A stretch of 35,205 nucleotides of DNA from a virus (lineage: Duplodnaviria; Heunggongvirae; Uroviricota; Caudoviricetes): IMG/VR virus record IMGVR_UViG_2588253749_000005; one strand, given 5' to 3'. This document shows, in pieces, positions 1,937 to 29,312 of this stretch (positions within the stretch are counted from its first letter, which is position 1; each line of letters begins with the position of its first letter). The notes beneath the pieces were generated by a model that saw nothing but the letters and a program-made list of their open reading frames with translations, made no database searches and was not told where the DNA came from. The translations under genes were made by a program, and so were the position numbers.

Positions 1937-3100
1937 TCACTCATCATCTTCGGTTTCGTACTCCACATCAGAAAGCCTTACCTCAAGCTCTAAGGACGTC
2001 GTGAAGCCGCTATTATTCAGAAAATGTGTCACCTTAGTGATTGTCCAGTCCTGCTCGTCTATGACACGCTTAAAGCCTGATACTTTGACCGGTGTTTCCG
2101 TGTAAATATCTGCCCGACCGGTAGCCAGGCTGATGGAGAACTCCGCTACACCCCGTTGCAGTTTATCCCACTTCGCCTGAGCGGCGCGCATGGCCTGCGC
2201 TTTCGTGGCATATACCGTGGTCAGGGCAAAAACGTTGTCAGCCTCACCGGCCATGTATTCACCTTCGCGCGCTTCCGGTACTTTTGGCGCTTTCTTCTGC
2301 GTGACTGGTTTCGCTTTCGGGTGCTCCAGTGCGCGCAGGTGTTTTTCTTTCTTTTTGCGTTTCAGTTTTACCTTCTGCTTTTGCGGCTTCGGGTCTTTGG
2401 TGTGAAGCCACTTTGCCGTTACGCCGGTATAGGCTCCACGGTCAGCAATCGCAAAATGGTGGCGGTCGCCGTCGCTGCGGGTTATGGTGACCTGCGGGAT
2501 TTTTTTACCGCTGGCCGTCACCCCCTGCCCCGCTTTGAGAAACAACAGTTTTCCCATTTTTACCGAGACCTCACCGCCGTTGCGTTCTGCAAGACGGGTC
2601 AGGAATTTCGCATCAGACTCCTGCGACTGGTCTATGTGCGGGATTTTAATTCCGGCCAGTGACGGAGCGACACTGGCTTCCAGCCTGTTACGGGAGGCTA
2701 TCGCCTCAACAATCGCACCGAGCGTGGTGTCATGCCAGGAGCCTTCCCGGCGGGAATTGAGCGTCCCGCGAAAATCTGCACTCCGGGCGCGGATGGTGAC
2801 CACATCCGGTGCGCCCCGGTGTTCAACCTCATCAACGGTAAATTTCCCTTTGCATACCAGGGCAAAACCTTTCCAGCCGATATACACCGTCAGGACAGCG
2901 CCACGAACCGGCAGCCCGACCTGCCCGTCGGCATCGTTCAGTTCAATATCAAGCTGGTCAGCCTCAAAGCCCCGGTTATCTGTCAGGGTCATGCTCATCA
3001 GACGGTCGCTGATATTGCCGGTAATATCCCTGCTGTCGAGCATCAGCATGTAATCCGGCGTCAGCGTACTGCCTGCATCAAATGTCAGCGCATCCAGCAT
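1937..3100 (-). CDS. D: Tail protein D
   Basis: 387 aa, ATG at 3100, recognised as P2 gpD; position between ogr and U. Confidence 0.9.
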   Translation of the reverse strand: MLDALTFDAGSTLTPDYMLMLDSRDITGNISDRLMSMTLTDNRGFEADQLDIELNDADGQVGLPVRGAVLTVYIGWKGFALVCKGKFTVDEVEHRGAPDVVTIRARSADFRGTLNSRREGSWHDTTLGAIVEAIASRNRLEASVAPSLAGIKIPHIDQSQESDAKFLTRLAERNGGEVSVKMGKLLFLKAGQGVTASGKKIPQVTITRSDGDRHHFAIADRGAYTGVTAKWLHTKDPKPQKQKVKLKRKKKEKHLRALEHPKAKPVTQKKAPKVPEAREGEYMAGEADNVFALTTVYATKAQAMRAAQAKWDKLQRGVAEFSISLATGRADIYTETPVKVSGFKRVIDEQDWTITKVTHFLNNSGFTTSLELEVRLSDVEYETEDDE

Positions 3101-3579
3101 TATCCCGCCCCCGTCATACCCGTGAATTTAGTCGCCATACTGCCAGCCTTACCGATGAGCGATTCCGCCTGTTTACCGATATCGCCATAAAGCGCGGCCA
3201 GTGATTCATCAACGCGGGTGAGCGACAGCGTAAAATCAATTTTCCGGGGTGTGCCGTCTGCAAAGAAAATACTCCCTGTTTCACTCACCTTGCTGATGAC
3301 ATACATGCCGTAAATCATGCCGGTACCATTCAGCAACGGCCACGCCCGGCCTTCATCTGCCATCAGTCTGAGCGTGGTCATCGTCAGCTTGCCGCCGGTC
3401 AGTTCGGGATAAAGCACGCCTGCAAGCGTAATGTTTTCCTCACCCACACCGAGAAACTGAAAGGCATCCCGTTTACCGATACAGGAATTTGACGGCCAGC
3501 GATAATCTGATTCACGCTGCATGGTCTGGTGTGGCAGCGTCTGGCGCATAAAAACAAACATACCTAACGCGAGCATCAT
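3100..3579 (-). CDS. U: Tail protein U
   Basis: 159 aa, ATG at 3579 preceded by GGAGGTGA RBS; recognised as P2 gpU; overlaps the D start. Confidence 0.9.
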   Translation of the reverse strand: MMLALGMFVFMRQTLPHQTMQRESDYRWPSNSCIGKRDAFQFLGVGEENITLAGVLYPELTGGKLTMTTLRLMADEGRAWPLLNGTGMIYGMYVISKVSETGSIFFADGTPRKIDFTLSLTRVDESLAALYGDIGKQAESLIGKAGSMATKFTGMTGAG

Positions 3580-8239: not shown

Positions 8240-8337
8240 CCGTTTAACTCCGTGGTTAATGGGTGCAATTATTTTCTGTTGTGCAGAGCATGAGACGCTA
8301 TTTGACCTGGCTGGTCAGTGGATGAAACAACAGATAA

Positions 8338-8358
8338 AGAAAAGGCGGACAATCCGCC
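8338..8358 (-). terminator. Intrinsic terminator at the 3' side of the FI-G cargo island
   Basis: Minus strand reads GGCGG-attgt-CCGCC followed by TTTTTT; lies between the cargo gene ending at 8725 and the FI upstream region. Confidence 0.5.
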
Positions 8359-8724
8359 CGCCTGTCATGATTTGTACTCACTTATTTCCCGACTGACAAT
8401 TTACATAGCCAAAACGCTATCAAATCTGACAGTCTGCTTTGAGCGATCTGCGGACATTACTAACAGCATTCTGTATGAATAACGGGGGGTAGATCATTCC
8501 TGTCCTCACGACGACGCCTATCTATCATACAGTCGTTCTTTGGATCAAGACGCGTTCTGAAATGGTGTTTTTATGTATGTGCTGAATTCTGGGGCATAGA
8601 GTAAACCTTTCAAATTGCCAGAAACAGAAATGTGCGATTTAGTTGTCAAGTAATACCGGATATTTCAGCGATTCATCAAGAAATCATCGACCAGGCTGCT
8701 GTACATTCTCATCGGACGATTTTA

Positions 8725-9591
8725 CTATTCCTCAAGATCGCAGTTACTGCAATGACCTTCCATCCGGAATGCACCACATTCACAAGGCTCCATAGGAACA
8801 AAACCATCCATCTTGCTGTATTCACATTTATACCAGAGACAGACACCGGCCCTTTGTTCCGGTAAATAAATTACGGATGGGACACTACATTCAGGACATT
8901 CCTGAAAATCCCAAGTTTGCAGATTATTCAGGCTGAAACCACAACAGATACAGTGAGTCCGTGCCGGAAAGCTTTCACCTTGGTAAAGGATAAAATGTGA
9001 AAAACTCTCACAAACGGGACAAAGTGCAAGGGTGTATTCCTGGTTAACAGTTATATCAAGGAATTGTTGCTCAAGAGCGATGATGTCTTGACGTAAATCA
9101 GAGTTCCATGAATTTTCGGTCTCATCTGACTGAATTATGACGAATGCGGGACGAAAAATTTGTTGGTACAGTTCACTCAGTTGCATTGACAGTTCTTGCG
9201 GACGAACCTCAAGGGCAAAATGCTGAAGGTTATTACGCAACTGACCCACCGTTTTCATCATTTGTAATGCAGATTCAGAAAATTCGGCTGGGTAATATGT
9301 CTTTAACAGCTTACAAAGCTGGCTGACGTTGACAGATTTACACTGGTGTAATTCTGACTCGGTTGGATGCGCCGGATCCACACATTTTTCTTGAAGCGAT
9401 GCTGGATTAAAAATCGCTCCAGACCCATTGCGCGAAACTACGGCCTTCAATAATAGCTCAGCGGCCTGAAAGAGGTTAAGCAGGCACTGTTTGTAGTCAC
9501 GTCGATCATGCCCTTCTAGCGCTTTGTTAAAGTAGTCCAGCCCGGTTTTCACTGAATCCAACGCATTTTCTAGTAAGTTAAAACGGACCAT
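8725..9591 (-). CDS. Uncharacterised cargo protein: helical N-terminal domain with HEPN-like R-x4-H motif (RNNLQH) plus Cys-rich zinc-ribbon-like C-terminus
   Basis: Track ORF 8725..9666 starts at GTG; preferred start is the ATG at 9591 preceded by a G-rich RBS (about 288 aa); alternative ATG at 9615; C-terminal 100 aa has CPVC, CICC, CPEC, C-x4-C, CEC and CSNC motifs; AT-rich relative to phage genes. Confidence 0.6.
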   Translation of the reverse strand: MVRFNLLENALDSVKTGLDYFNKALEGHDRRDYKQCLLNLFQAAELLLKAVVSRNGSGAIFNPASLQEKCVDPAHPTESELHQCKSVNVSQLCKLLKTYYPAEFSESALQMMKTVGQLRNNLQHFALEVRPQELSMQLSELYQQIFRPAFVIIQSDETENSWNSDLRQDIIALEQQFLDITVNQEYTLALCPVCESFSHFILYQGESFPARTHCICCGFSLNNLQTWDFQECPECSVPSVIYLPEQRAGVCLWYKCEYSKMDGFVPMEPCECGAFRMEGHCSNCDLEE

Positions 9592-9756
9592 ATTAAAGCC
9601 CCCCCGAATAGGCATCGTCGTTATGCCAGCGCTTCCGCCAGTTACACAAATAGTGATTGTACCCACGAATATTGGGAACCTATTTTAGCATGTTTAACTT
9701 TAGTAGTACTGACACAACATTCATGGAGCGGACTGATTGACTTTTGGGGGCGCGTA

Positions 9757-9785
9757 TTTACAAACTCACTACAATGCTGTATAAT
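9757..9785 (+). promoter_or_regulatory. Candidate sigma70 promoter (TTTACA-17 nt-TATAAT) facing the small hydrophobic ORF
   Basis: -35 tttaca at 9757..9762, 17-nt spacer, -10 tataat at 9780..9785; plus strand, opposite to the flanking cargo genes. Confidence 0.45.
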
Positions 9786-9923
9786 TCGTGAAGAGTGAAT
9801 TTAGCTAGTGCATCCATAGGTTCAATTCCTATGACTACAATTCTCATCACAGCTCTCCCAATAGTCGCATTTATCCGTTACCTCAACGTGTTACTTAACA
9901 ATTACGTCAGTAAGGAGAAGCCT

Positions 9924-10106
9924 ATGAGTAAATTATTCTGCCATGAAGTACTATATGTATCTTGTTTCATTGAAACTTTTTGGGCTGGGGTGATAAGTGT
10001 AGTAGCGGGTCTGATGACGGGCGGTGTCCAAATTATTTTGGCACTAGCTAAATCTTCTCAATTTTTGTTTTTTTTCAAAGCACTTACACCCATAAATATT
10101 ATTTAA
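9924..10106 (+). CDS. Small hydrophobic protein (60 aa, predicted membrane-spanning)
   Basis: ATG at 9924 preceded by AAGGAG with a 6-nt spacer; hydrophobic core FWAGVISVVAGLMTGGVQIILALA; same frame is open from 9795 with an alternative ATG at 9831 (91 aa) lacking an RBS. Confidence 0.45.
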   Translation: MSKLFCHEVLYVSCFIETFWAGVISVVAGLMTGGVQIILALAKSSQFLFFFKALTPINII

Positions 10107-10371
10107 ATCAATAAAATAAGTCACTCTACGCATATTTTCCTTATCATGGTCTTTCGTGTTTTTGTACTCAACATGATCGTTTCCCCTTTCTTTAATACAC
10201 AGTGTGATTAGCTACGTCTTCTATTGGAGCGAAGTGGACGGGTTAATTGAGCTGAATGTCAGCTATGAGCGAGGAACGGACTTCAAGAAAGTACCTAACT
10301 GCGTATCGATTGCAAAATATGACAGTCTGACGGTGTTAAGGGCCGTGAGTGCAGCCCTTAAGAAAAAAGTA

Positions 10372-11307
10372 TTAATAATATATCCTGGCTTGCTCGCTCG
10401 TTTCGGTTAAGTTTATTTCATGGTAGTGATTATTTATAAAGTCACAAAAAGTACTAATTTTATCTTTGAGATTACTCATGCTATGCGTGATTTCGTCGTA
10501 TAAATCGCTTTCCTCCTGATTTCGACAGTGGTCACCGGGATTTATAAAACTATAAGTATCATTTGGTGCTGAATAATTATATGGAGCTTTTCTAAACAAG
10601 ATAATTAGATCACGCCAAGCCGTTGCAAAATCAATTGTAACATTCTTTAAAGCTGTATCATTCAGTTGAAAAACAGGTGAGTTTAAAATGTTCAAAATAT
10701 TATCGTATTCTTCAATAATTAATGAATGAATGTATTTTGCGCCCCACTGCAAATGGTCTATTGTTGAATAAAAATCAATATAATTCAACAATCTCGACAA
10801 ATTTGAGATATCTCTCTTGCGCAAAAATTCTTCCCTCGTCGGTTGGTGTCGTTCGAACATTTGCGGGTAGTACATTTTGAGTACAGCTGGGTCTTTGCTT
10901 AAATCAAAGCTAATATCCTCCCAGAAAACCACATCGACAGGAAACAGGCCTTTTAATTGTCTGGCATCATTGAGTGTTCTTACATAGCGCTGAATGCTAA
11001 CATCCCTGGGCGCTGTCGTAGCGATGTAAAGAACCGTAATTTTTGGGCGAAATTTTTCAGCCTTGAGTAATTCATCATCGATTGTCGCCGTACTGATTCC
11101 TGATACTGTATTTTTACACTGAATTCCAACGAAACGCCCAAGAGAGTCATCACCATATACATCAACTCCATCCTGCCGCTGCCCTGACCGTCCATGTCTG
11201 TTCAGATTAGGATTGGACCATCGCAGTTGGAATGAACTTTTGCACATATCCTCAAATTCGTCCCAAGATTTAGGGGGGGGTAACAACATTGAATTATATG
11301 TAACCAC
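10372..11307 (-). CDS. Uncharacterised cargo protein with N-terminal Mrr-type restriction-endonuclease-like (PD-(D/E)xK fold) domain
   Basis: 311-aa ORF; GTG at 11307 with AAAGGA 7 nt upstream, alternative ATG at 11289; N-terminal WDEFEDMC...GRSGQRQDGVDVYG...GRFVGIQCK matches the Mrr-catalytic-domain pattern (D-x-D ... Q-x-K); C-terminal 170 aa unrecognised; strongly AT-rich. Confidence 0.6.
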   Translation of the reverse strand: MVTYNSMLLPPPKSWDEFEDMCKSSFQLRWSNPNLNRHGRSGQRQDGVDVYGDDSLGRFVGIQCKNTVSGISTATIDDELLKAEKFRPKITVLYIATTAPRDVSIQRYVRTLNDARQLKGLFPVDVVFWEDISFDLSKDPAVLKMYYPQMFERHQPTREEFLRKRDISNLSRLLNYIDFYSTIDHLQWGAKYIHSLIIEEYDNILNILNSPVFQLNDTALKNVTIDFATAWRDLIILFRKAPYNYSAPNDTYSFINPGDHCRNQEESDLYDEITHSMSNLKDKISTFCDFINNHYHEINLTETSEQARIYY

Positions 11308-11769
11308 TTACTAATCCTTTATCTAAGATTCTTCATTTTCGTAATCACTATCATAATCATGCTTGATGTGCAATATCTTATTTGCCATGGTTATATGACG
11401 TGAACATAATATATACTGTAAGTATAAGCAGAATTTATTAATGGTGTTCGCCACTCAACGTAATGGTTTCACACTCTAAGGTTCTTTTTTAATAAATCAA
11501 AACATTATGGACAGTGAATCATATCGGAAATGGTTCCTTTTAAATTGAATAACGGCCCATAGTACACAGGTGTATGTGTTAATCGATTTTTCAGACGTTT
11601 TTTTTCGCCTAACATGAGATTTCGTTCGATTGAGCACCAGACCCAATTACCACTATTTAATGATTTAGGTCGAGTAGTAGTAACGTCAGCTCTTGGCACA
11701 TAGCGGACTGTCAGATTAGGCTTTACTCTGTGCTATAGATATGTAAGCTCACACCAGAGATCATACAAC

Positions 11770-12297
11770 TTATTGCGGCATTTCCGGCCATTCGGGATTT
11801 GCAGGATCCACACGACTGACCAGAACGCTGTAGCGTTCCCATGCTTCCAGTCGGCTGCGTTCCTCATCCGTCGCCATATTCAGCCTGACAGCGCGTTCCA
11901 GCGGCAAAATCACGGATTCAGCTTCGGAAAGTAAAGCTGCCTTTTGTGATTCGGCCTGTTGTTGCTGTTCGTCTGCCGTATAAATCCGCTTAATCACGGC
12001 ACCATCCTTAAACATCCATTTACCTGAGTCATCAGCACGTCGGTTGGAGGTAATATCAGGAACCTCGACAACGCTGAAACCTTCAGGGTTAAGCGTTGAA
12101 GCATCTCTGGTGATGCCGACAATTATATTATTCTCGTCGTAAACAATCTTTATCGTGTCTTCCTGAAAATTACTTACTTCCTCATACCAGTTTTTTCCCT
12201 CTTCGGACCATAACCAGATAACATCAAAATTTTTTGTCAGTTGATATTGGGCAACAGTTTTTGGATTACCCGCAGTAATATTTTTTAAATGCTGCAT
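11770..12297 (-). CDS. G: Tail fiber assembly chaperone G
   Basis: 175 aa, ATG at 12297; recognised as P2 gpG-type; directly downstream of H. Confidence 0.85.
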
Positions 12298-15792: not shown

Positions 15793-16140
15793 TCAACTCA
15801 CAGGGATGGTTAACGAAAGTGGCTGGCCGGTGTCGTTGTGCTGACCGGTTAACGTGACCGTCATTCGCCCGTCAAAGCTGCGCGCCGTGGTGACGGATGA
15901 CAGGGTGACACGGGGTTCCCATTTCAGCACCGCCATGTAACAGGCGACCTTAATCTGCAACTCAAGCGCCGGGGTCTGCGGCTGGTCAATCATTGACGCC
16001 AGCAACGAGCCGTAATCACGACGCATCACCCGTGAGCCGACCGGTGTGCGCAGGATATCGCCGATACTCTGGCTGATATGCTCAAGGTCAGTGACAGTCA
16101 GGCCATCACTGTGATTCATTCCGAGATAACGCGCTGTCAT
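15793..16140 (-). CDS. W: Baseplate wedge protein W
   Basis: 115 aa, ATG at 16140; P2 gpW. Confidence 0.88.
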   Translation of the reverse strand: MTARYLGMNHSDGLTVTDLEHISQSIGDILRTPVGSRVMRRDYGSLLASMIDQPQTPALELQIKVACYMAVLKWEPRVTLSSVTTARSFDGRMTVTLTGQHNDTGQPLSLTIPVS

Positions 16141-16772
16141 AGAGGACTCCCGGTTGTGCCGCCGCTGTCGCCGGGGTGTTTATGGGTATGCAGTACCTTA
16201 CCGTTTGATGAGAGTTCACCGCCGGTGTGTTCAATGTTGCCGCGCATCGTCCCGCCCTTCTGTACTTCCAGCGTGCCGGTAATCAGCCTGTTGGTGCAGA
16301 CCACCTCCGGCGTGTCCAGGGTGATGCGGGTTGATGCTTTCACCATGACCACCGGCACCGTGGCAGTAACAGAATCAGAAGCCGTCACGCTGGCCGTTTT
16401 AACTCCGCTTACCGTGAGCGCGCTGGTTTCAGGTTCATACTCAATCACCGCCCCGTCAGGGAAACGGATATGCAGGGCATCCGCCGACGCAGACGGCGCG
16501 GGGTTATCGCCGGAATAAATCCCCGGCAGAACGAACGCCGTGTCGAGTTCACCACCCACGGCCAGAATCAGCACCTGTTCCCCCACGGAAGGTGCCCACC
16601 ATGTGCGCGAACGCCCGGCGCGATGGGTCAGCCACTGAAGCCAGTCGGTGCACATGCCGCCGGTCTGCACACGGCAGCGACCGGCATTAAGGTCGGTTTC
16701 GACGATAATGCCGGTGCGGATCATGTTGCGCAGTGCGCGCGCGAGTTCCTGAATATTTGCGAGAGTGTTCAT
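16137..16772 (-). CDS. V: Baseplate spike/hub protein V
   Basis: 211 aa from the ATG at 16772 (MNTLANIQELARALRNMIRTG...); the track ORF starts 6 codons earlier at TTG. Confidence 0.9.
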   Translation of the reverse strand: MNTLANIQELARALRNMIRTGIIVETDLNAGRCRVQTGGMCTDWLQWLTHRAGRSRTWWAPSVGEQVLILAVGGELDTAFVLPGIYSGDNPAPSASADALHIRFPDGAVIEYEPETSALTVSGVKTASVTASDSVTATVPVVMVKASTRITLDTPEVVCTNRLITGTLEVQKGGTMRGNIEHTGGELSSNGKVLHTHKHPGDSGGTTGSPL

Positions 16773-16855
16773 GCGTGTGAGATTGCACAATATATAAAAG
16801 TTATGCTATCTGGATTCATTTGTAGAACGACCATACAACATTCGAGGAGAGCGTA

Positions 16856-17641
16856 ATGTTCAGTGATAATGTGATTAATGCGTGGTGGTTTATCTCTTTG
16901 TATCTATTTTTATTAATAGCATTAACATTTGTTACCTTTGGTAAAAGTAATCTTATGAGGTTTATTGCACATCATTTCAATCTTGAGTATTCAGACAGAA
17001 AGTTAAAAATGCTCGACAAAAAATGGCGCGACATTCAACTATTTAAAGTAATTAACGGAATCAATGTATCAGGCATCGAAGATGTGAGAATGATACAGCA
17101 GGGGCTGATTGATGGAAAACTAAAAACATCGTATTTTTTCCTTACTCGCATCTGGGGTGACATAACAAAACCACCACACATAATTAAAACAATAATTGTA
17201 ATTCTGGCCAGTATTTTTTACATTCTCCTCGCATGTTACATACACAACGAACAATCCGTTATAGTAAGGGATGCCATAGGCATACCATATAAAAACATGA
17301 TGTACTATGTTTATAGTGACAAAGTTCTTTTATCCTTCAAAAATAAAGCAGTTGAATTTAATAAAACTTATAGCCTTGCCGATTGCAAGAGACTGCAAAA
17401 CGTATTTATAAAAGACACACTTCCTGAGATCGCCTGCAATAAGCTCTTACAGCTAAACGAGGAGGACTCCGAATGGTTAAGCCAGGAGATTAAAGATAAT
17501 AACAGTCACAAAAAAGCATTATTAATACTATCCCTCGTCTATTTCACTTCAGGTCTGGTTATATTCCTGTCATATACAAAATTCTTTTACGCCAATAAGA
17601 AGGTTTTAGAATACAAAGCATCAAATAAAAATCACTCATAA
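16856..17641 (+). CDS. Uncharacterised three-transmembrane-segment protein in the S-V (P2 orf30) cargo slot
   Basis: 261 aa; ATG at 16856 with GAGGAG RBS 6 nt upstream; hydrophobic segments near the N-terminus, middle and C-terminus; very AT-rich; opposite strand to the surrounding tail genes. Confidence 0.7.
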   Translation: MFSDNVINAWWFISLYLFLLIALTFVTFGKSNLMRFIAHHFNLEYSDRKLKMLDKKWRDIQLFKVINGINVSGIEDVRMIQQGLIDGKLKTSYFFLTRIWGDITKPPHIIKTIIVILASIFYILLACYIHNEQSVIVRDAIGIPYKNMMYYVYSDKVLLSFKNKAVEFNKTYSLADCKRLQNVFIKDTLPEIACNKLLQLNEEDSEWLSQEIKDNNSHKKALLILSLVYFTSGLVIFLSYTKFFYANKKVLEYKASNKNHS

Positions 17642-17647
17642 ACCTCT

Positions 17648-17687
17648 AAACATTGAGCGACCAGCATGGCCGCTCAATGTTTAATTG
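17648..17687 (+). terminator. Hairpin terminator after the S-V cargo gene
   Basis: Perfect 12-bp inverted repeat AAACATTGAGCG / CGCTCAATGTTT with an 11-nt loop, starting 7 nt after the stop codon and running into a T/A-rich stretch. Confidence 0.5.
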
Positions 17688-17712
17688 CGCATCAGCCTCT
17701 GCCTGGATAAAA

Positions 17713-18165
17713 CTAACGCTCAAGGTGAGCCAGGATAATCTCTTCAATCATCTGCACATCCTCACCGGTAAAACCGAGCAGAGGACGCGCCGGATAATCA
17801 ATTTTCTTACCGTCTTTTCGGTTTTCTTCCGACAGACCGAACTGATGCACACTGGCAATTTTCGGCGACTTCCCGCCGTAAAACTCCATTGATGCCTGTT
17901 CCGGGCTGGCGCGGATATGCAAAAAACGACTGGTAATAAGTTTCGCAAACATTTTTCGCTTAACGCGACCGGTCTTTTTTCTGACGCTCTGCTGCTGGCG
18001 TGGCGCGTAGGGTGTGCCGTCCGGGGCTTTCTGTGCCATCACCCGACGCTGCTGACTCTGCCGCAGACGTTTCGCCAGTTCGGCACTCAGTCGCCGACGC
18101 CCTGACGGTGACAGCGATTCAATCAGCCCGGTCAGCCGGTCTTCAAAACGCTTAAACTCATTCAT
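17713..18165 (-). CDS. S: Tail completion protein S
   Basis: 150 aa, ATG at 18165; P2 gpS. Confidence 0.9.
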   Translation of the reverse strand: MNEFKRFEDRLTGLIESLSPSGRRRLSAELAKRLRQSQQRRVMAQKAPDGTPYAPRQQQSVRKKTGRVKRKMFAKLITSRFLHIRASPEQASMEFYGGKSPKIASVHQFGLSEENRKDGKKIDYPARPLLGFTGEDVQMIEEIILAHLER

Positions 18166-26914: not shown

Positions 26915-27056
26915 ACACCCCGTCATCCCCCCCCTCACACGCTCACCACCGCACAAAACACCCCGCAGACACACAACGCCTCAACGGGCAGACTAAGTGC
27001 CGTCACGACGCGCTGAGACGCTGAAAAAATACAATCAGCACCACCGTCAGCGCGCA

Positions 27057-27075
27057 GTGCTTTCCCCGCCTCGCC
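27057..27075 (-). other. cos cohesive-end site (19 nt)
   Basis: gtgctttccccgcctcgcc is the reverse complement of the P2 cohesive end GGCGAGGCGGGGAAAGCAC as I recall it; located next to Q as expected. Confidence 0.7.
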
Positions 27076-27281
27076 CGCCCGCTTCATGGGGCGGTTTTAA
27101 TGCAGTTGCATGACCACTCAACTAGCGCGCCAGTCCTGATGTCGCCAGGCAGTTATTGTTCTCTGACTTGCGTGCGCTTCGATGCAGAGTAATGCACTTC
27201 CTGAATTGCTCGCATTCGCATCGTTATCATGATAGAAAACAGGTAGTTATTTGTGCGCAACTTAAGAAGAAATCACTAATT

Positions 27282-28670
27282 ATGAAAAAGATTTATGAAT
27301 TAACTACTGGTAGAGCGCTTAAGTATTTTCTGCAGCATGATTCATACACTACTCTGGAGCTACCCAGTTATGTCGATTTTTCTTCCTTGCTTGAAGAAAT
27401 CAACTCCGCGATAGATGAAGGTAAAATCAACTTCCAACCTGACTCCAAGTCATTGATGGGGAAGAATATAAATTACGAGGTTTTAGTCAGCAAAGATGGC
27501 TTATATAGCTGGCGACGAATAACACTAATTAATCCTCTGTACTACGTGTATTTTTGTAAACTTATTACATCCTCTTCCAACTGGAATGCTATAAGGAATA
27601 AATTTAGAGAGTTTGAGTCTAATGATCTTTTTTTATGCTCAAGTATCCCAGTGAGCAAAAAGAACACCTCAAACGTAGCTGCATCTGTTTTAAACTGGTG
27701 GGAAGATTTTGAACAAAAAAGTCTTTCATTGGCTCTTGAGTATGAGTTCATGTTCAGCACAGATATTTCAAACTTCTACCCTTCTATTTACACTCATAGC
27801 TTTGAATGGGTATTCATCTCAAAAGAAGAGGCCAAAAAGAAAGAAAATAACAATAACCCAGGACGATTGATTGACACTCATATCCAGATGATGATGAGTA
27901 ATCAGACAAACGGAATACCATTGGGTAGTACGTTGATGGATACATTTGCCGAATTAATTTTAGGCGAAATTGATTTACAGCTAAGAAAAAAAACCGAAGA
28001 GCAAAAAATAACGGATTACAAAGTAGTTCGCTACAGAGATGATTATCGAATATTTTCAAGCAGTAAAGATGATTTGGACAAAATCTCAAAGTGTTTGGTT
28101 GAGGTCTTAGGTGAGTTTGGGCTTGATTTAAACTCAAGAAAAACAGAACTACATGACGACATCATTCTTCACTCCCTTAAATCAGCAAAAAAAGAATATA
28201 TTATAGAAGGGTCGTTCAACTCCCTACAGAAAATGTTGTATGCAATATATTTATTTTCTTTAAAACATCAAAACTCCAAAATTACAGTCAGATATTTAAA
28301 TGATTTCTTGCGGAAATTATTTAGGAAGAAAAAGATCACAAATAGTGGGCATCAACTAGATGCAATGCTTGGAATTATTTCAAGCATCATGGCTAAAAAC
28401 CCAACCACCTACCCAGTGGGAATGGCTATTTTCGCAAAACTCTTGACCTTCCTTTATGACGACGATGAACTCAAATTTGGCAAGTTACAACAACTTCATT
28501 GTAAACTAGGTAAACAACCAAATACTGAAATGTTAGATATTTGGTTTCAACGAGTTCAAGGGAAGATACACACACAATGGGAAGGCGATTACAAAACAGC
28601 CCTATGTCAACGCATAAATGATGAACTCAAGGAAAAAAAACATTTACCATTGATGGCCTGTGGGATGTAG
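27282..28670 (+). CDS. Reverse transcriptase, Abi-P2-like defence-associated type, in the tin/old slot
   Basis: 462 aa from the ATG at 27282; RT motifs STDISNFYPSIY, NGIPLGSTLMD and VVRYRDDYRIF (YxDD); very AT-rich; sits between cos and A where P2 carries tin/old; the track ORF starts 42 codons upstream at a non-ATG codon. Confidence 0.8.
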   Translation: MKKIYELTTGRALKYFLQHDSYTTLELPSYVDFSSLLEEINSAIDEGKINFQPDSKSLMGKNINYEVLVSKDGLYSWRRITLINPLYYVYFCKLITSSSNWNAIRNKFREFESNDLFLCSSIPVSKKNTSNVAASVLNWWEDFEQKSLSLALEYEFMFSTDISNFYPSIYTHSFEWVFISKEEAKKKENNNNPGRLIDTHIQMMMSNQTNGIPLGSTLMDTFAELILGEIDLQLRKKTEEQKITDYKVVRYRDDYRIFSSSKDDLDKISKCLVEVLGEFGLDLNSRKTELHDDIILHSLKSAKKEYIIEGSFNSLQKMLYAIYLFSLKHQNSKITVRYLNDFLRKLFRKKKITNSGHQLDAMLGIISSIMAKNPTTYPVGMAIFAKLLTFLYDDDELKFGKLQQLHCKLGKQPNTEMLDIWFQRVQGKIHTQWEGDYKTALCQRINDELKEKKHLPLMACGM

Positions 28671-28925
28671 AGTGGATTCCGGGTTCAGCCAAAAATAAAA
28701 ACAAACAGAAAATACTATCAATTTTGAAAAAAACAAAAATTGTGGATTTAGATGCATTCGAAGAAATGGATACTGATATTACACCAGAAGAAGTGAACTT
28801 ATTCGACAAGGAACACAGCGCTTAACGAAACAATGTTATTAACTCAACATGACTTCGTTAAGCATTAAAGCGAACAGTCATATGAAATTTCGACATCCCT
28901 AACGCCTCGCAAGCTCGTTGTTCAA

Positions 28926-28970
28926 CCCCGCCAGCACTGAAAGCGAGTTTCAGCGTCGGCGGGATTTTCT
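28926..28970 (+). terminator. Candidate compound-hairpin terminator downstream of the reverse transcriptase
   Basis: CCCCGCC ... GGCGGG outer stem around an inner CTGAAA-gcgag-TTTCAG stem, followed by ATTTTCT. Confidence 0.4.
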
Positions 28971-28990
28971 ATGGTCAACGTGGTGACAGA

Positions 28991-29251
28991 TTATGGGCAC
29001 GCGTGAAGGTAGAAATATGGACGGTTGGGATTATTTATTTCTCCCATACGGCTGCAGTTATCACTGACGATCTCAGTCCCTCCGACCAACTCGTAGAGGG
29101 TCAGATTCTCTTTGACCATAATTTGTAAACAATAGCCATCAGCCGGAGACTCTTGCACGAGTACAATGGCGGAACCGGACGCATAGCTAGTAATGTATGC
29201 ATTAGTCATAATGACATGCTTCCAAAGCAAGATTGCCACGCAGTTCCGCAT
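28991..29251 (-). CDS. Hypothetical protein at the P2 orf91 position, immediately downstream of A
   Basis: 86-aa ORF with ATG at 29251 (alternative ATG at 29209); weak RBS; called mainly by position. Confidence 0.4.
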   Translation of the reverse strand: MRNCVAILLWKHVIMTNAYITSYASGSAIVLVQESPADGYCLQIMVKENLTLYELVGGTEIVSDNCSRMGEINNPNRPYFYLHACP

Positions 29252-29312
29252 GATCCATCAGTTGCTGATACCAACCATCAAGTGGAAGCAAAATCAACCA
29301 TTTCAATCATTT

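Follow-up and report, generated by a model that had tools for sequence, protein, structure and literature searches.

The orf30 gene of P2-like phages: a fast-diverging membrane-protein gene in the S-V cargo slot and its possible role in phage-phage conflict

The S-V cassette and its identity with P2 orf30

The stretch of DNA analyzed here (the window) is a viral sequence of 35,205 nucleotides, IMG/VR record IMGVR_UViG_2588253749_000005. The genome is P2-like (Peduovirus), its late genes lie on the minus strand, and the subject of the analysis is a single gene lying among them, the ortholog of orf30 of phage P2. The gene occupies an AT-rich cassette of 940 bp between the late genes V and S (16773..17712, exactly between the V start codon and the S stop codon), which is present or absent among P2-like phages and holds one open reading frame (ORF). 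This ORF, at 16856..17641 on the plus strand, runs from ATG to TAA and encodes a predicted three-pass membrane protein of 261 amino acids (aa). Its left neighbor is V (16137..16772, minus strand), the baseplate spike gene and first gene of the V late operon, and its right neighbor is S (17713..18165, minus strand), the tail completion gene and last gene of the O late operon; both were assigned from their ORFs and the P2 annotation, and V of the syntenic Serratia loci matches the Pfam models Phage_base_V/Phage_spike. As V and S are both on the minus strand, the orf30 ortholog is antisense to the late genes. Such a site is readily understood as a permissive boundary, since the O operon ends with S and the next operon begins with V. 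A repeat scan of the region returned no flanking direct repeats of the kind left by transposition-type insertion.

The composition of the gene is markedly foreign to its surroundings, with a GC content of 33.3% overall and 36.6% at third codon positions (GC3), compared to 54–60% and 55–71%, respectively, in I, J, W, V, S and R. An earlier reading made from the sequence alone (the sequence-only reading) had described a membrane-protein moron in the orf30 slot, AT-rich relative to its neighbors and on the strand opposite to them, and its account of the locus holds: the interval it gave is the exact S-V intergenic segment, the 261-aa ORF is where it was placed, and three hydrophobic segments are found in the product by Kyte-Doolittle hydropathy.

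There is very little doubt that the ORF is a true gene for a membrane protein and the ortholog of P2 orf30. The segment shares 95% DNA identity with P2 positions 9280–10380, and the product is identical to P2 Orf30 (AAD03281.1; AF063097 9439–10224) at 233 of 261 residues (89%), while slot, strand, position of the ribosome-binding site (RBS) and downstream hairpin are all equal in the two phages. The differences are concentrated at one end of the protein, as 27 of the 28 aa changes fall within the first 76 residues, comprising the first transmembrane (TM) helix and the start of loop 1. This N-terminal region of the window allele (residues 1–76, 16856–17083) is unlike that of all ten other alleles examined, and the remainder is near-identical to P2, a mosaic pattern that suggests recombination within the gene. 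An allele identical to that of the window was found in E. coli TW10573.

The gene is thus already known, and it is an accessory gene dispensable for P2 growth, being annotated as “nonessential” in the P2 record. It matches PHROG 2407, a family of unknown function, over residues 1–261 of 261 (E = 8.1e-144), as do all 33 aligned relatives; the identity found is therefore to an uncharacterized protein, and not to a characterized one with a non-defense role, which the sequence-only reading had named as evidence against itself. In Pfam and NCBIfam, nothing meaningful matched the window protein; the noise-level matches were DUF6535 (19.5 bits, across a TM helix) and a tick protein (E = 0.018). Papers that name orf30 give its function as unknown, group its region with the TO and Z regions as the three horizontally acquired regions of P2, and report a different ORF at the orf30 position in phage R18C; searching the literature for protein accessions returned no match.

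Distribution among phages and hosts is patchy. Within phage records, orf30 is held by 21 of the 76 that match, with fiAA91-ss, pro483 and others matching in the flanks only; in fiAA91-ss an unrelated 66-bp spacer lies between S and V. Searching phage records by tblastn with the window protein returned close alleles only, and a word-indexed protein search yielded only 4 close clusters from the single sequence, against 14 from a profile. In complete E. coli genomes the gene is present in 463 of 5426 (8.5%), always on the chromosome, with 460 of the 463 copies full length at 86–100% identity, and each of 11 extracted alleles is 786 nt long with zero internal stops. Two marks of a moron are observed, presence or absence among close phages and a base composition apart from that of the neighbors, the latter in both the window and the Serratia loci.

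Predicted architecture of the Orf30 protein

Orf30 is predicted to be a three-pass inner-membrane protein in the N-out/C-in orientation, based on hydropathy (Kyte-Doolittle, 19-residue window) and the distribution of charge, for which the values given here, as well as those for cysteine, are family averages. A topology prediction was among the checks proposed by the sequence-only reading, and three helices are placed at about residues 10–29, 106–130 and 219–242. TM1 (residues ~10–29, 16883..16942, plus strand) is predicted to run from out to in and follows an N-terminus that lacks Lys and Arg (family mean 0.0 K/R and 1.8 D/E), so that the short acidic N-terminus would lie in the periplasm. A cleavable N-terminal signal peptide was considered as a reading of this segment and rejected, as the n-region carries no positive charge across the family. 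Loop 1 (residues ~30–105, 16943..17170, plus strand) is predicted from alignments, charge and AlphaFold2 (AF2) modeling to form a conserved helical domain of about 75 residues in the cytoplasm. It has a net charge of about +4 and, with the lowest column entropy, is where the family is best conserved (Q61, G68, D76, G87), with AF2 helices at residues 48–67 and 74–86.

TM2 (residues ~106–130, 17171..17245, plus strand) corresponds to an AF2 helix at 109–133 and leads into loop 2 (residues ~131–218, 17246..17509, plus strand), which is predicted to be a periplasmic domain of four β-strands and helices. This loop is net negative, holds exactly 2.0 Cys on average (C177 and C194 in the window protein), and has its AF2 strands within residues 141–173; it is probably an α/β domain of about 85 residues with one disulfide. 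TM3 (residues ~219–242, 17510..17581, plus strand), placed by hydropathy and charge, is followed by a lysine-rich C-terminal tail (17582..17638, plus strand) with a mean net charge of about +2, predicted on the basis of this charge to be cytoplasmic. Across the family alignment, G68, G87, C177, C194 and I212 are invariant. Confidence in the AF2 model rises from a predicted local distance difference test score (pLDDT) of 53 with the single sequence to 84 with the family alignment, with a predicted template modeling score (pTM) of 0.70.

The top fold matches are to claudin-fold proteins (claudins, TARPs), which are non-significant; claudin-fold proteins also join membrane helices to an outer β-sheet.

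Fixed position, fast divergence and retention of the orf30 family

An exhaustive phmmer search of 1.8 billion representatives returned about 20 full-length relatives at 21–33% identity, aligned end to end with the conserved motifs. Members of the family occur in Serratia, Yersinia, Kosakonia, Rahnella and others, all AT-rich (31–38% GC), and cluster look-ups add Pectobacterium, Cronobacter and other Yersinia. Despite this divergence the position is strictly kept: the gene lies in the S-V slot, antisense and 54–196 bp from the V start, in 12 of the 12 relatives with readable context, which comprise six from Serratia and six hits of the slot survey described below (Kosakonia, an Enterobacter metagenome-assembled genome, Yersinia frederiksenii, Pseudescherichia, Buttiauxella and Rahnella).

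The protein has diverged far faster than the genes around it. Among Serratia phages, W is 91–99% identical, V 77–94% and S 77–90%, whereas the orf30-like protein is only 43–52% identical; between Serratia and the window, V is 65–68% identical and the orf30-like protein 23–24%. Co-variation of the orf30-like protein with the V spike was considered and is not supported, as V is 94% identical where the orf30-like protein is 45% identical. Within E. coli, the non-synonymous divergence (dN) of orf30 is 0.059 compared to 0.005–0.012 in the flanks (5–10-fold higher), with similar synonymous divergence (dS; 0.12 compared to 0.07–0.10), giving a dN/dS of 0.47 (pairwise Nei-Gojobori, 11 alleles) compared to 0.07–0.13 in the flanks. 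This ratio is unevenly distributed along the protein. The two loops and the tail have values of 0.25–0.41, and the loops are under purifying selection, while TM1 and TM3 have values of about 1.3, which are read as little constraint past hydrophobicity, with positive selection not proven.

The gene also outlasts the prophages that carry it. Next to a ybjL-like (Asp-Al_Ex) gene, S. rubidaea and S. odorifera contain decayed P2-like remnants in which V, S and R are fragmentary or lost, yet the orf30-like ORF remains whole (extract L004, 6001–6762; extracts L005 and L006, 6001–6753; an ogr gene is nearby). The same is seen in an E. coli B remnant at the ogrK locus, in which S is truncated and orf30 is intact (extract L100, 17731–18516). 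The gene itself has been known for decades; its fixed position, fast divergence and survival in decayed prophages are new here.

A probable relative in E. coli B: DUF6216 and H-NS

A second family likely shares a common ancestor with orf30, although this is unproven. Eight of the 33 orf30-family members give near full-length matches to Pfam DUF6216 (PF19723) that fall below its gathering threshold of 27.3 bits (best E = 8.7e-7), while the window, P2 and other E. coli alleles give no match to this model. Over 105 columns, hhalign of the two families gives E = 7e-5 and a probability of 63%; the aligned part comprises the Cys pair, TM3 and tail, in the C-terminal half only, and cross-searches with hidden Markov models between the families give matches of about 20 bits.

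In the E. coli B prophage that carries retron Ec86/Eco1, a DUF6216 gene (WP_000115390, 268 aa) lies antisense between S and V, at extract L101 45675–46481 (E. coli B-StaR NZ_CP115180.1, 895674–896480), with an overlap of 59 nt at the 3' end of S. The likeness to orf30 includes the slot, the antisense orientation, the size (~265 aa), the AT-richness and three hydrophobic segments, and extends to the uncharged or acidic N-terminus, the basic tail, and two invariant Cys in loop 2 followed by a similar helix. In contrast to orf30, DUF6216 has a longer and strongly conserved C-terminal tail of its own, lacks the loop-1 motif, and was found in a 186-type prophage but not among isolated phage records; tblastn of phage records with the BL21 DUF6216 protein returned no match.

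A September 2026 preprint describes three H-NS peaks, determined by chromatin immunoprecipitation sequencing (ChIP-seq), in the BL21 P2-like prophage carrying retron Eco1. They lie on the reverse transcriptase (RT) gene, the Ndt gene and the “DUF6216” gene, with transcription increased in an hns/stpA mutant. The H-NS-bound DUF6216 gene was placed here using the genome of a sister E. coli B strain rather than that of BL21-AI. That this gene is orf30 was considered and rejected, as E. coli B has both genes, in two P2-like elements: the 186-type prophage with retron Ec86/Eco1 and DUF6216, and the ogrK-locus remnant with orf30, which also holds an ABC-three-component system in its A-Q hotspot. The link of orf30 to DUF6216 and H-NS is new here.

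The S-V slot as a cargo hotspot

Loci from 80 species genomes, anchored on gpV and searched with an S probe, indicate that the S-V slot is a cargo hotspot that sometimes holds defense-like genes, a finding that is new here. In 49 of the 80 loci the probe located S no more than 3.5 kb from V, with a slot of 69–2540 bp. The slot is empty (69–77 bp) in 18 of these 49 and holds 566–2540 bp of AT-rich DNA (31–42% GC) in the other 31. Of the 31 loci without an S-probe match, 3 hold cargo, and the rest show a plus-strand ORF ending 90–190 nt before V; overall, the slot is occupied in about 34 of the 80 loci. The cargo is highly varied, forming 33 clusters, 28 of which are singletons, in either orientation, and includes many membrane proteins as well as RelA_SpoT (PADLOC PDC-S33), caspase-domain, DUF4062, Mrr_cat/PDC-M36A, DUF2971/PDC-S31 and M48 peptidase-like proteins.

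As an example, the slot of an Escherichia sp. P2-like prophage (extract L020, 2273–3373, minus strand) holds a 366-aa RelA_SpoT protein matching PDC-S33, which is like the fused toxSAS/CapRel-type defense proteins. In two species the orf30-like gene stays next to V but is separated from S by a second cargo gene: a caspase (Peptidase_C14) at extract L044 1053–2525 (plus strand) by the orf30-like gene at 2601–3365 (minus strand), and a 273-aa two-TM protein at extract L024 1599–2420 (plus strand) by 2630–3415 (minus strand).

Control region and downstream hairpin

The start codons of V and orf30 are separated by a divergent control region of 83 bp (16773..16855), which contains the late promoter PV (minus strand), as located by P2 annotation through a gapless alignment, and any promoter of orf30 would have to overlap PV. 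A putative binding site of PV for Ogr/activator is placed by homology at 16814..16841 (minus strand; P2 feature 10239–10266, extract L001 1615–1642, offset +15199), its end being 15 nt from the orf30 ATG. V and orf30 thus appear, from the sequence, to have one overlapping divergent control region. The spacer is nearly invariant among alleles. The RBS noted by the sequence-only reading, GAGGAG, is read at 16844..16849 (plus strand), 6 nt 5' of the ATG, and AAGGAG is found at the corresponding place in P2 and the Serratia relatives. By homology with the P2 record (window 16772–16856), transcription of the V operon starts at the first base of the V ATG, a placement that would imply either a leaderless V mRNA or an approximate annotation.

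The gene had been described as independently transcribed, but a promoter of its own is not evident in the window allele. The spacer of the window allele has no consensus sigma-70 promoter in a strict scan, and a weight-matrix (PWM) scan gives weak sigma-70 candidates only. In Serratia relatives, a conserved extended -10 element (TGCTACAAT) lies 25–28 nt upstream of the ATG, reading TTTGCTACAAT in extracts L004, L005, L008 and L009 and TTTGCTAATAT in L007; this Serratia-type element is absent from the window/P2 type.

Downstream, a hairpin at 17647..17683, recognized by an inverted-repeat scan and by folding, lies between the convergent orf30 and S genes and begins 6 nt past the orf30 stop codon. 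It has an outer stem of 12–13 bp and an inner stem of 3 bp: the 12-bp perfect arms, AAACATTGAGCG (17648–17659) and CGCTCAATGTTT (17671–17682), which are the palindrome pointed out by the sequence-only reading, are extended by one U-A pair and then followed by the 3-bp inner stem. Its folding energy is -22.4 kcal/mol (z = -5.25), with none of 200 shuffles as stable. The flanks are a UUUAAUU tail on the plus strand and AGAGGUUUAU on the minus strand, with no run of at least five T, and a consensus terminator scan did not call the hairpin, as there is no T-run. The P2 record lists this hairpin, on the opposite strand, as the putative rho-independent terminator of the late O operon. It is probably a two-way terminator serving orf30 and S. 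The terminator that the sequence-only reading ascribed to orf30 itself would be this stable hairpin just 3' of the gene, which lacks a T-run and in P2 is annotated for the convergent O operon. An Rfam scan of the region gave spurious hairpin matches only.

In several relatives, the slot gene and the convergent S gene overlap at their 3' ends by 23–59 nt (extract L003 6779–6801, L007 5776–5804 and L101 45675–45733), which leaves no room for a terminator hairpin of the window type.

Possible functions of orf30

The reading favored here is that orf30 takes part in phage-phage conflict from the inner membrane of the lysogen, and an anti-phage role of any kind is considered to have slightly less than an even chance of being correct. 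The more specific proposal, drawn by analogy, that orf30 acts in superinfection exclusion at the DNA-entry step by blocking injection, is doubtful when taken by itself. In this proposal, the protein would be made at a low level in the lysogen, the level being low because H-NS would bind the AT-rich cassette, and would act at the inner membrane, where its periplasmic domain would hinder membrane penetration or DNA delivery by a superinfecting phage in the manner of P22 SieA or HK97 gp15. A structured periplasmic domain is what an exclusion protein would need to meet the incoming tail tip, and the fast sequence change could be the result of an arms race with phage ejection or tail-tip proteins. 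An anti-phage role is supported by the defense-like cargo of the S-V slot in related prophages, by the fast evolution of the gene, and by its retention after prophage decay. A broader proposal is put forward tentatively, with the balance of likelihood against it: orf30 and DUF6216 may form an unrecognized superfamily of prophage inner-membrane exclusion or defense proteins that is specific to P2/186-like contractile-tailed phages, fixed in position beside V, diversified by an arms race and silenced by H-NS, which would make the S-V slot a third anti-phage hotspot besides A-Q and Z/fun.

Among known systems, P22 SieA is the one that orf30 would most likely work like. SieA is a prophage-encoded inner-membrane protein with three predicted TM helices, as is predicted for Orf30; it acts alone, and its gene is an antisense insert next to virion/ejection genes. 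Blocking of injection has been demonstrated for SieA. However, SieA belongs to a phage with a short tail, is smaller (163 aa compared to 261 aa) and without the two large loop domains, and has no sequence or profile similarity to orf30. HK97 gp15 is a further parallel, as it is a moron with its own terminator among the tail genes of a temperate phage and is described as an inner-membrane superinfection-exclusion protein, but it is only 62 aa, lies on the same strand as the tail genes, and has no similarity to orf30. As there is no sequence relation to either protein, orf30 would work like them and is not a member of their families. The P2 genes old, tin and Z/fun are similar in another sense, being AT-rich, non-essential, horizontally acquired genes at P2 operon boundaries, and in the window the three accessory regions (A-Q, Z/fun and orf30) are all AT-rich; old, tin and fun differ in having known exclusion phenotypes, and the A-Q and Z/fun hotspots have been experimentally validated, unlike the S-V slot.

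Several points weigh against the anti-phage reading, among them that the window allele has no convincing sigma-70 promoter upstream. No family in PADLOC-DB 2.0 matches the window protein at E ≤ 10, and PADLOC gives no match for DUF6216 or for extract proteins P0006 and P0026. Aligning the orf30 family by hhalign with P22 SieA gives a probability of 0.2% over 9 columns, and with HK97 gp15 a probability of 0.5%. Foldseek returned no match at E < 0.001 in BFVD and a best match of E = 0.13 in the PDB, where the matches are generic helical or claudin-like, and a profile search of PDB sequences with the orf30 and DUF6216 families found no solved relative. The classical exclusion shown by P2 lysogens is ascribed to old, tin and fun, and double lysogens of P2 can arise, an argument against strong exclusion of P2 itself. 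No phenotype of orf30 is reported in the literature, where its function is listed as unknown. The dN/dS near 1 in the TM helices may reflect relaxed constraint. The H-NS findings, which are the only evidence on expression, were made on a distantly related gene of a different prophage, not on orf30; H-NS silencing, if applicable, could explain why phenotypes were missed in classical and library screens. Hotspots also hold non-defense cargo, and position alone is therefore weak evidence. Furthermore, the E. coli defense studies consulted on P2-like prophages, comprising functional and genomic screens, name only the A-Q and Z/fun hotspots, while a 2026 census describes a hotspot “downstream of GpL ... 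within the tail genes”, which may include the S-V slot.

Other explanations draw on the same observations. A lysogenic conversion function unrelated to phages, in which orf30 changes the host envelope (surface, stress, serum or phagocyte resistance, niche fitness), is unlikely, yet it has a precedent in the CFT073 P2-like prophage, whose Z/fun slot carries neaT; this illustrates that AT-rich antisense membrane-protein morons of P2-like prophages can be virulence or fitness factors. The intact orf30-like genes in decayed Serratia and E. coli B prophages suggest a benefit to the host, and presence in 8.5% of complete E. coli genomes, which come from varied hosts, fits this as well. However, scans detected neither an enzymatic nor an adhesin domain, there is no report of a phenotype, and a gene tied strictly to one slot across genera, whose sequence turns over so extremely, resembles conflict genes more than genes for housekeeping-like envelope functions. 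An abortive-infection effector of the RexB or SLATT-like kind is distinctly unlikely; here the cytoplasmic domain would sense infection and the inner membrane would then be permeabilized or depolarized, with the lysogen killed or arrested. This would suit a membrane protein encoded by one gene in a slot where other prophages carry RelA_SpoT (toxSAS/CapRel-like) and caspase cargo, the predicted cytoplasmic loop being the most conserved part of the family, and H-NS silencing of the relative fits a potentially toxic product. One Serratia member matches the SLATT model weakly (E = 0.0025, 15.5 bits), but the match is marginal, limited to that member, and consistent with the compositional bias of TM segments. 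In addition, the window protein has no PADLOC match, no conserved partner sensor gene lies alongside, and the two invariant Cys and structured periplasmic domain point to an extracytoplasmic interaction that a cytoplasmic sensor-pore would not need.

A role in the phage life cycle itself, either with the gene or its transcription modulating late-gene expression, through convergent or antisense transcription against the O operon or divergent overlap with PV, or with the protein tuning lysis or tail assembly, is quite improbable. In its favor is the layout, with the orf30 ATG 15 nt from the Ogr site of PV, a 3' end that shares the O-operon hairpin or in some relatives overlaps S, and an almost invariant 83-bp spacer; against this, P2 annotates orf30 as nonessential, many isolated and viable P2-like phages have an empty slot, and the loops of the protein are under purifying selection. 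The other occupants of the slot are unrelated and in either orientation, so that no specific regulatory design is conserved. Least credible, and very improbable, is that orf30 is selfish or neutral AT-rich filler, a hitch-hiking remnant without function for phage or host. It would account for the absence of any known function, for a dN/dS of 0.47 that is far above the neighbors and reaches about 1.3 in TM1 and TM3, and for the H-NS silencing of the relative. However, the 786-nt frame is kept in 11 divergent alleles and nearly all E. coli copies are full length, loop dN/dS is 0.25–0.41, residues are invariant across relatives of 20–30% identity, the family alignment yields a confident AF2 model, and the ORF is intact where neighboring phage genes have decayed.

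The suggestion of the sequence-only reading, that the gene is a lysogenic-conversion, superinfection-exclusion or abortive-infection factor, would fit the genomic context; it gains from the defense-like slot cargo, fast evolution and survival of prophage decay, and loses from the lack of similarity to PADLOC models, SieA and gp15 and from defense studies that name only A-Q and Z/fun. The question carries weight as P2 is a model temperate phage and orf30 is among its few genes without a known function. If orf30 excludes or aborts phages, it would represent a new anti-phage membrane-protein family without detectable fold or sequence relatives, and a third cargo slot would be added to the P2 hotspots used for finding defense systems. 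The family occurs in ~8.5% of complete E. coli genomes, extends to many other Enterobacterales and includes a gene in the laboratory strain BL21. If there is no anti-phage role, the strict positional conservation and extreme sequence turnover would still need explaining. Taken together, the new findings render the 30-year-old question of orf30 directly testable.

Other cargo in the window

The Z/fun slot of the window, between FI and G (~8240–11770, 36–44% GC), has no close match in phage records past its flanks (21% coverage). It holds ORFs at 8725–9666 and 10372–11307, both on the minus strand and encoding 313 and 311 aa, which look like a two-gene cargo. The A-Q (“TO”, old/tin) hotspot holds a reverse-transcriptase cassette in an AT-rich stretch at ~27000–29300, with a 504-aa ORF at 27156–28670 (plus strand). 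This cassette is 98.8–98.9% identical to phage pro147 and P2-EC58, in which it is annotated as a “putative reverse transcriptase” and a hypothetical protein.

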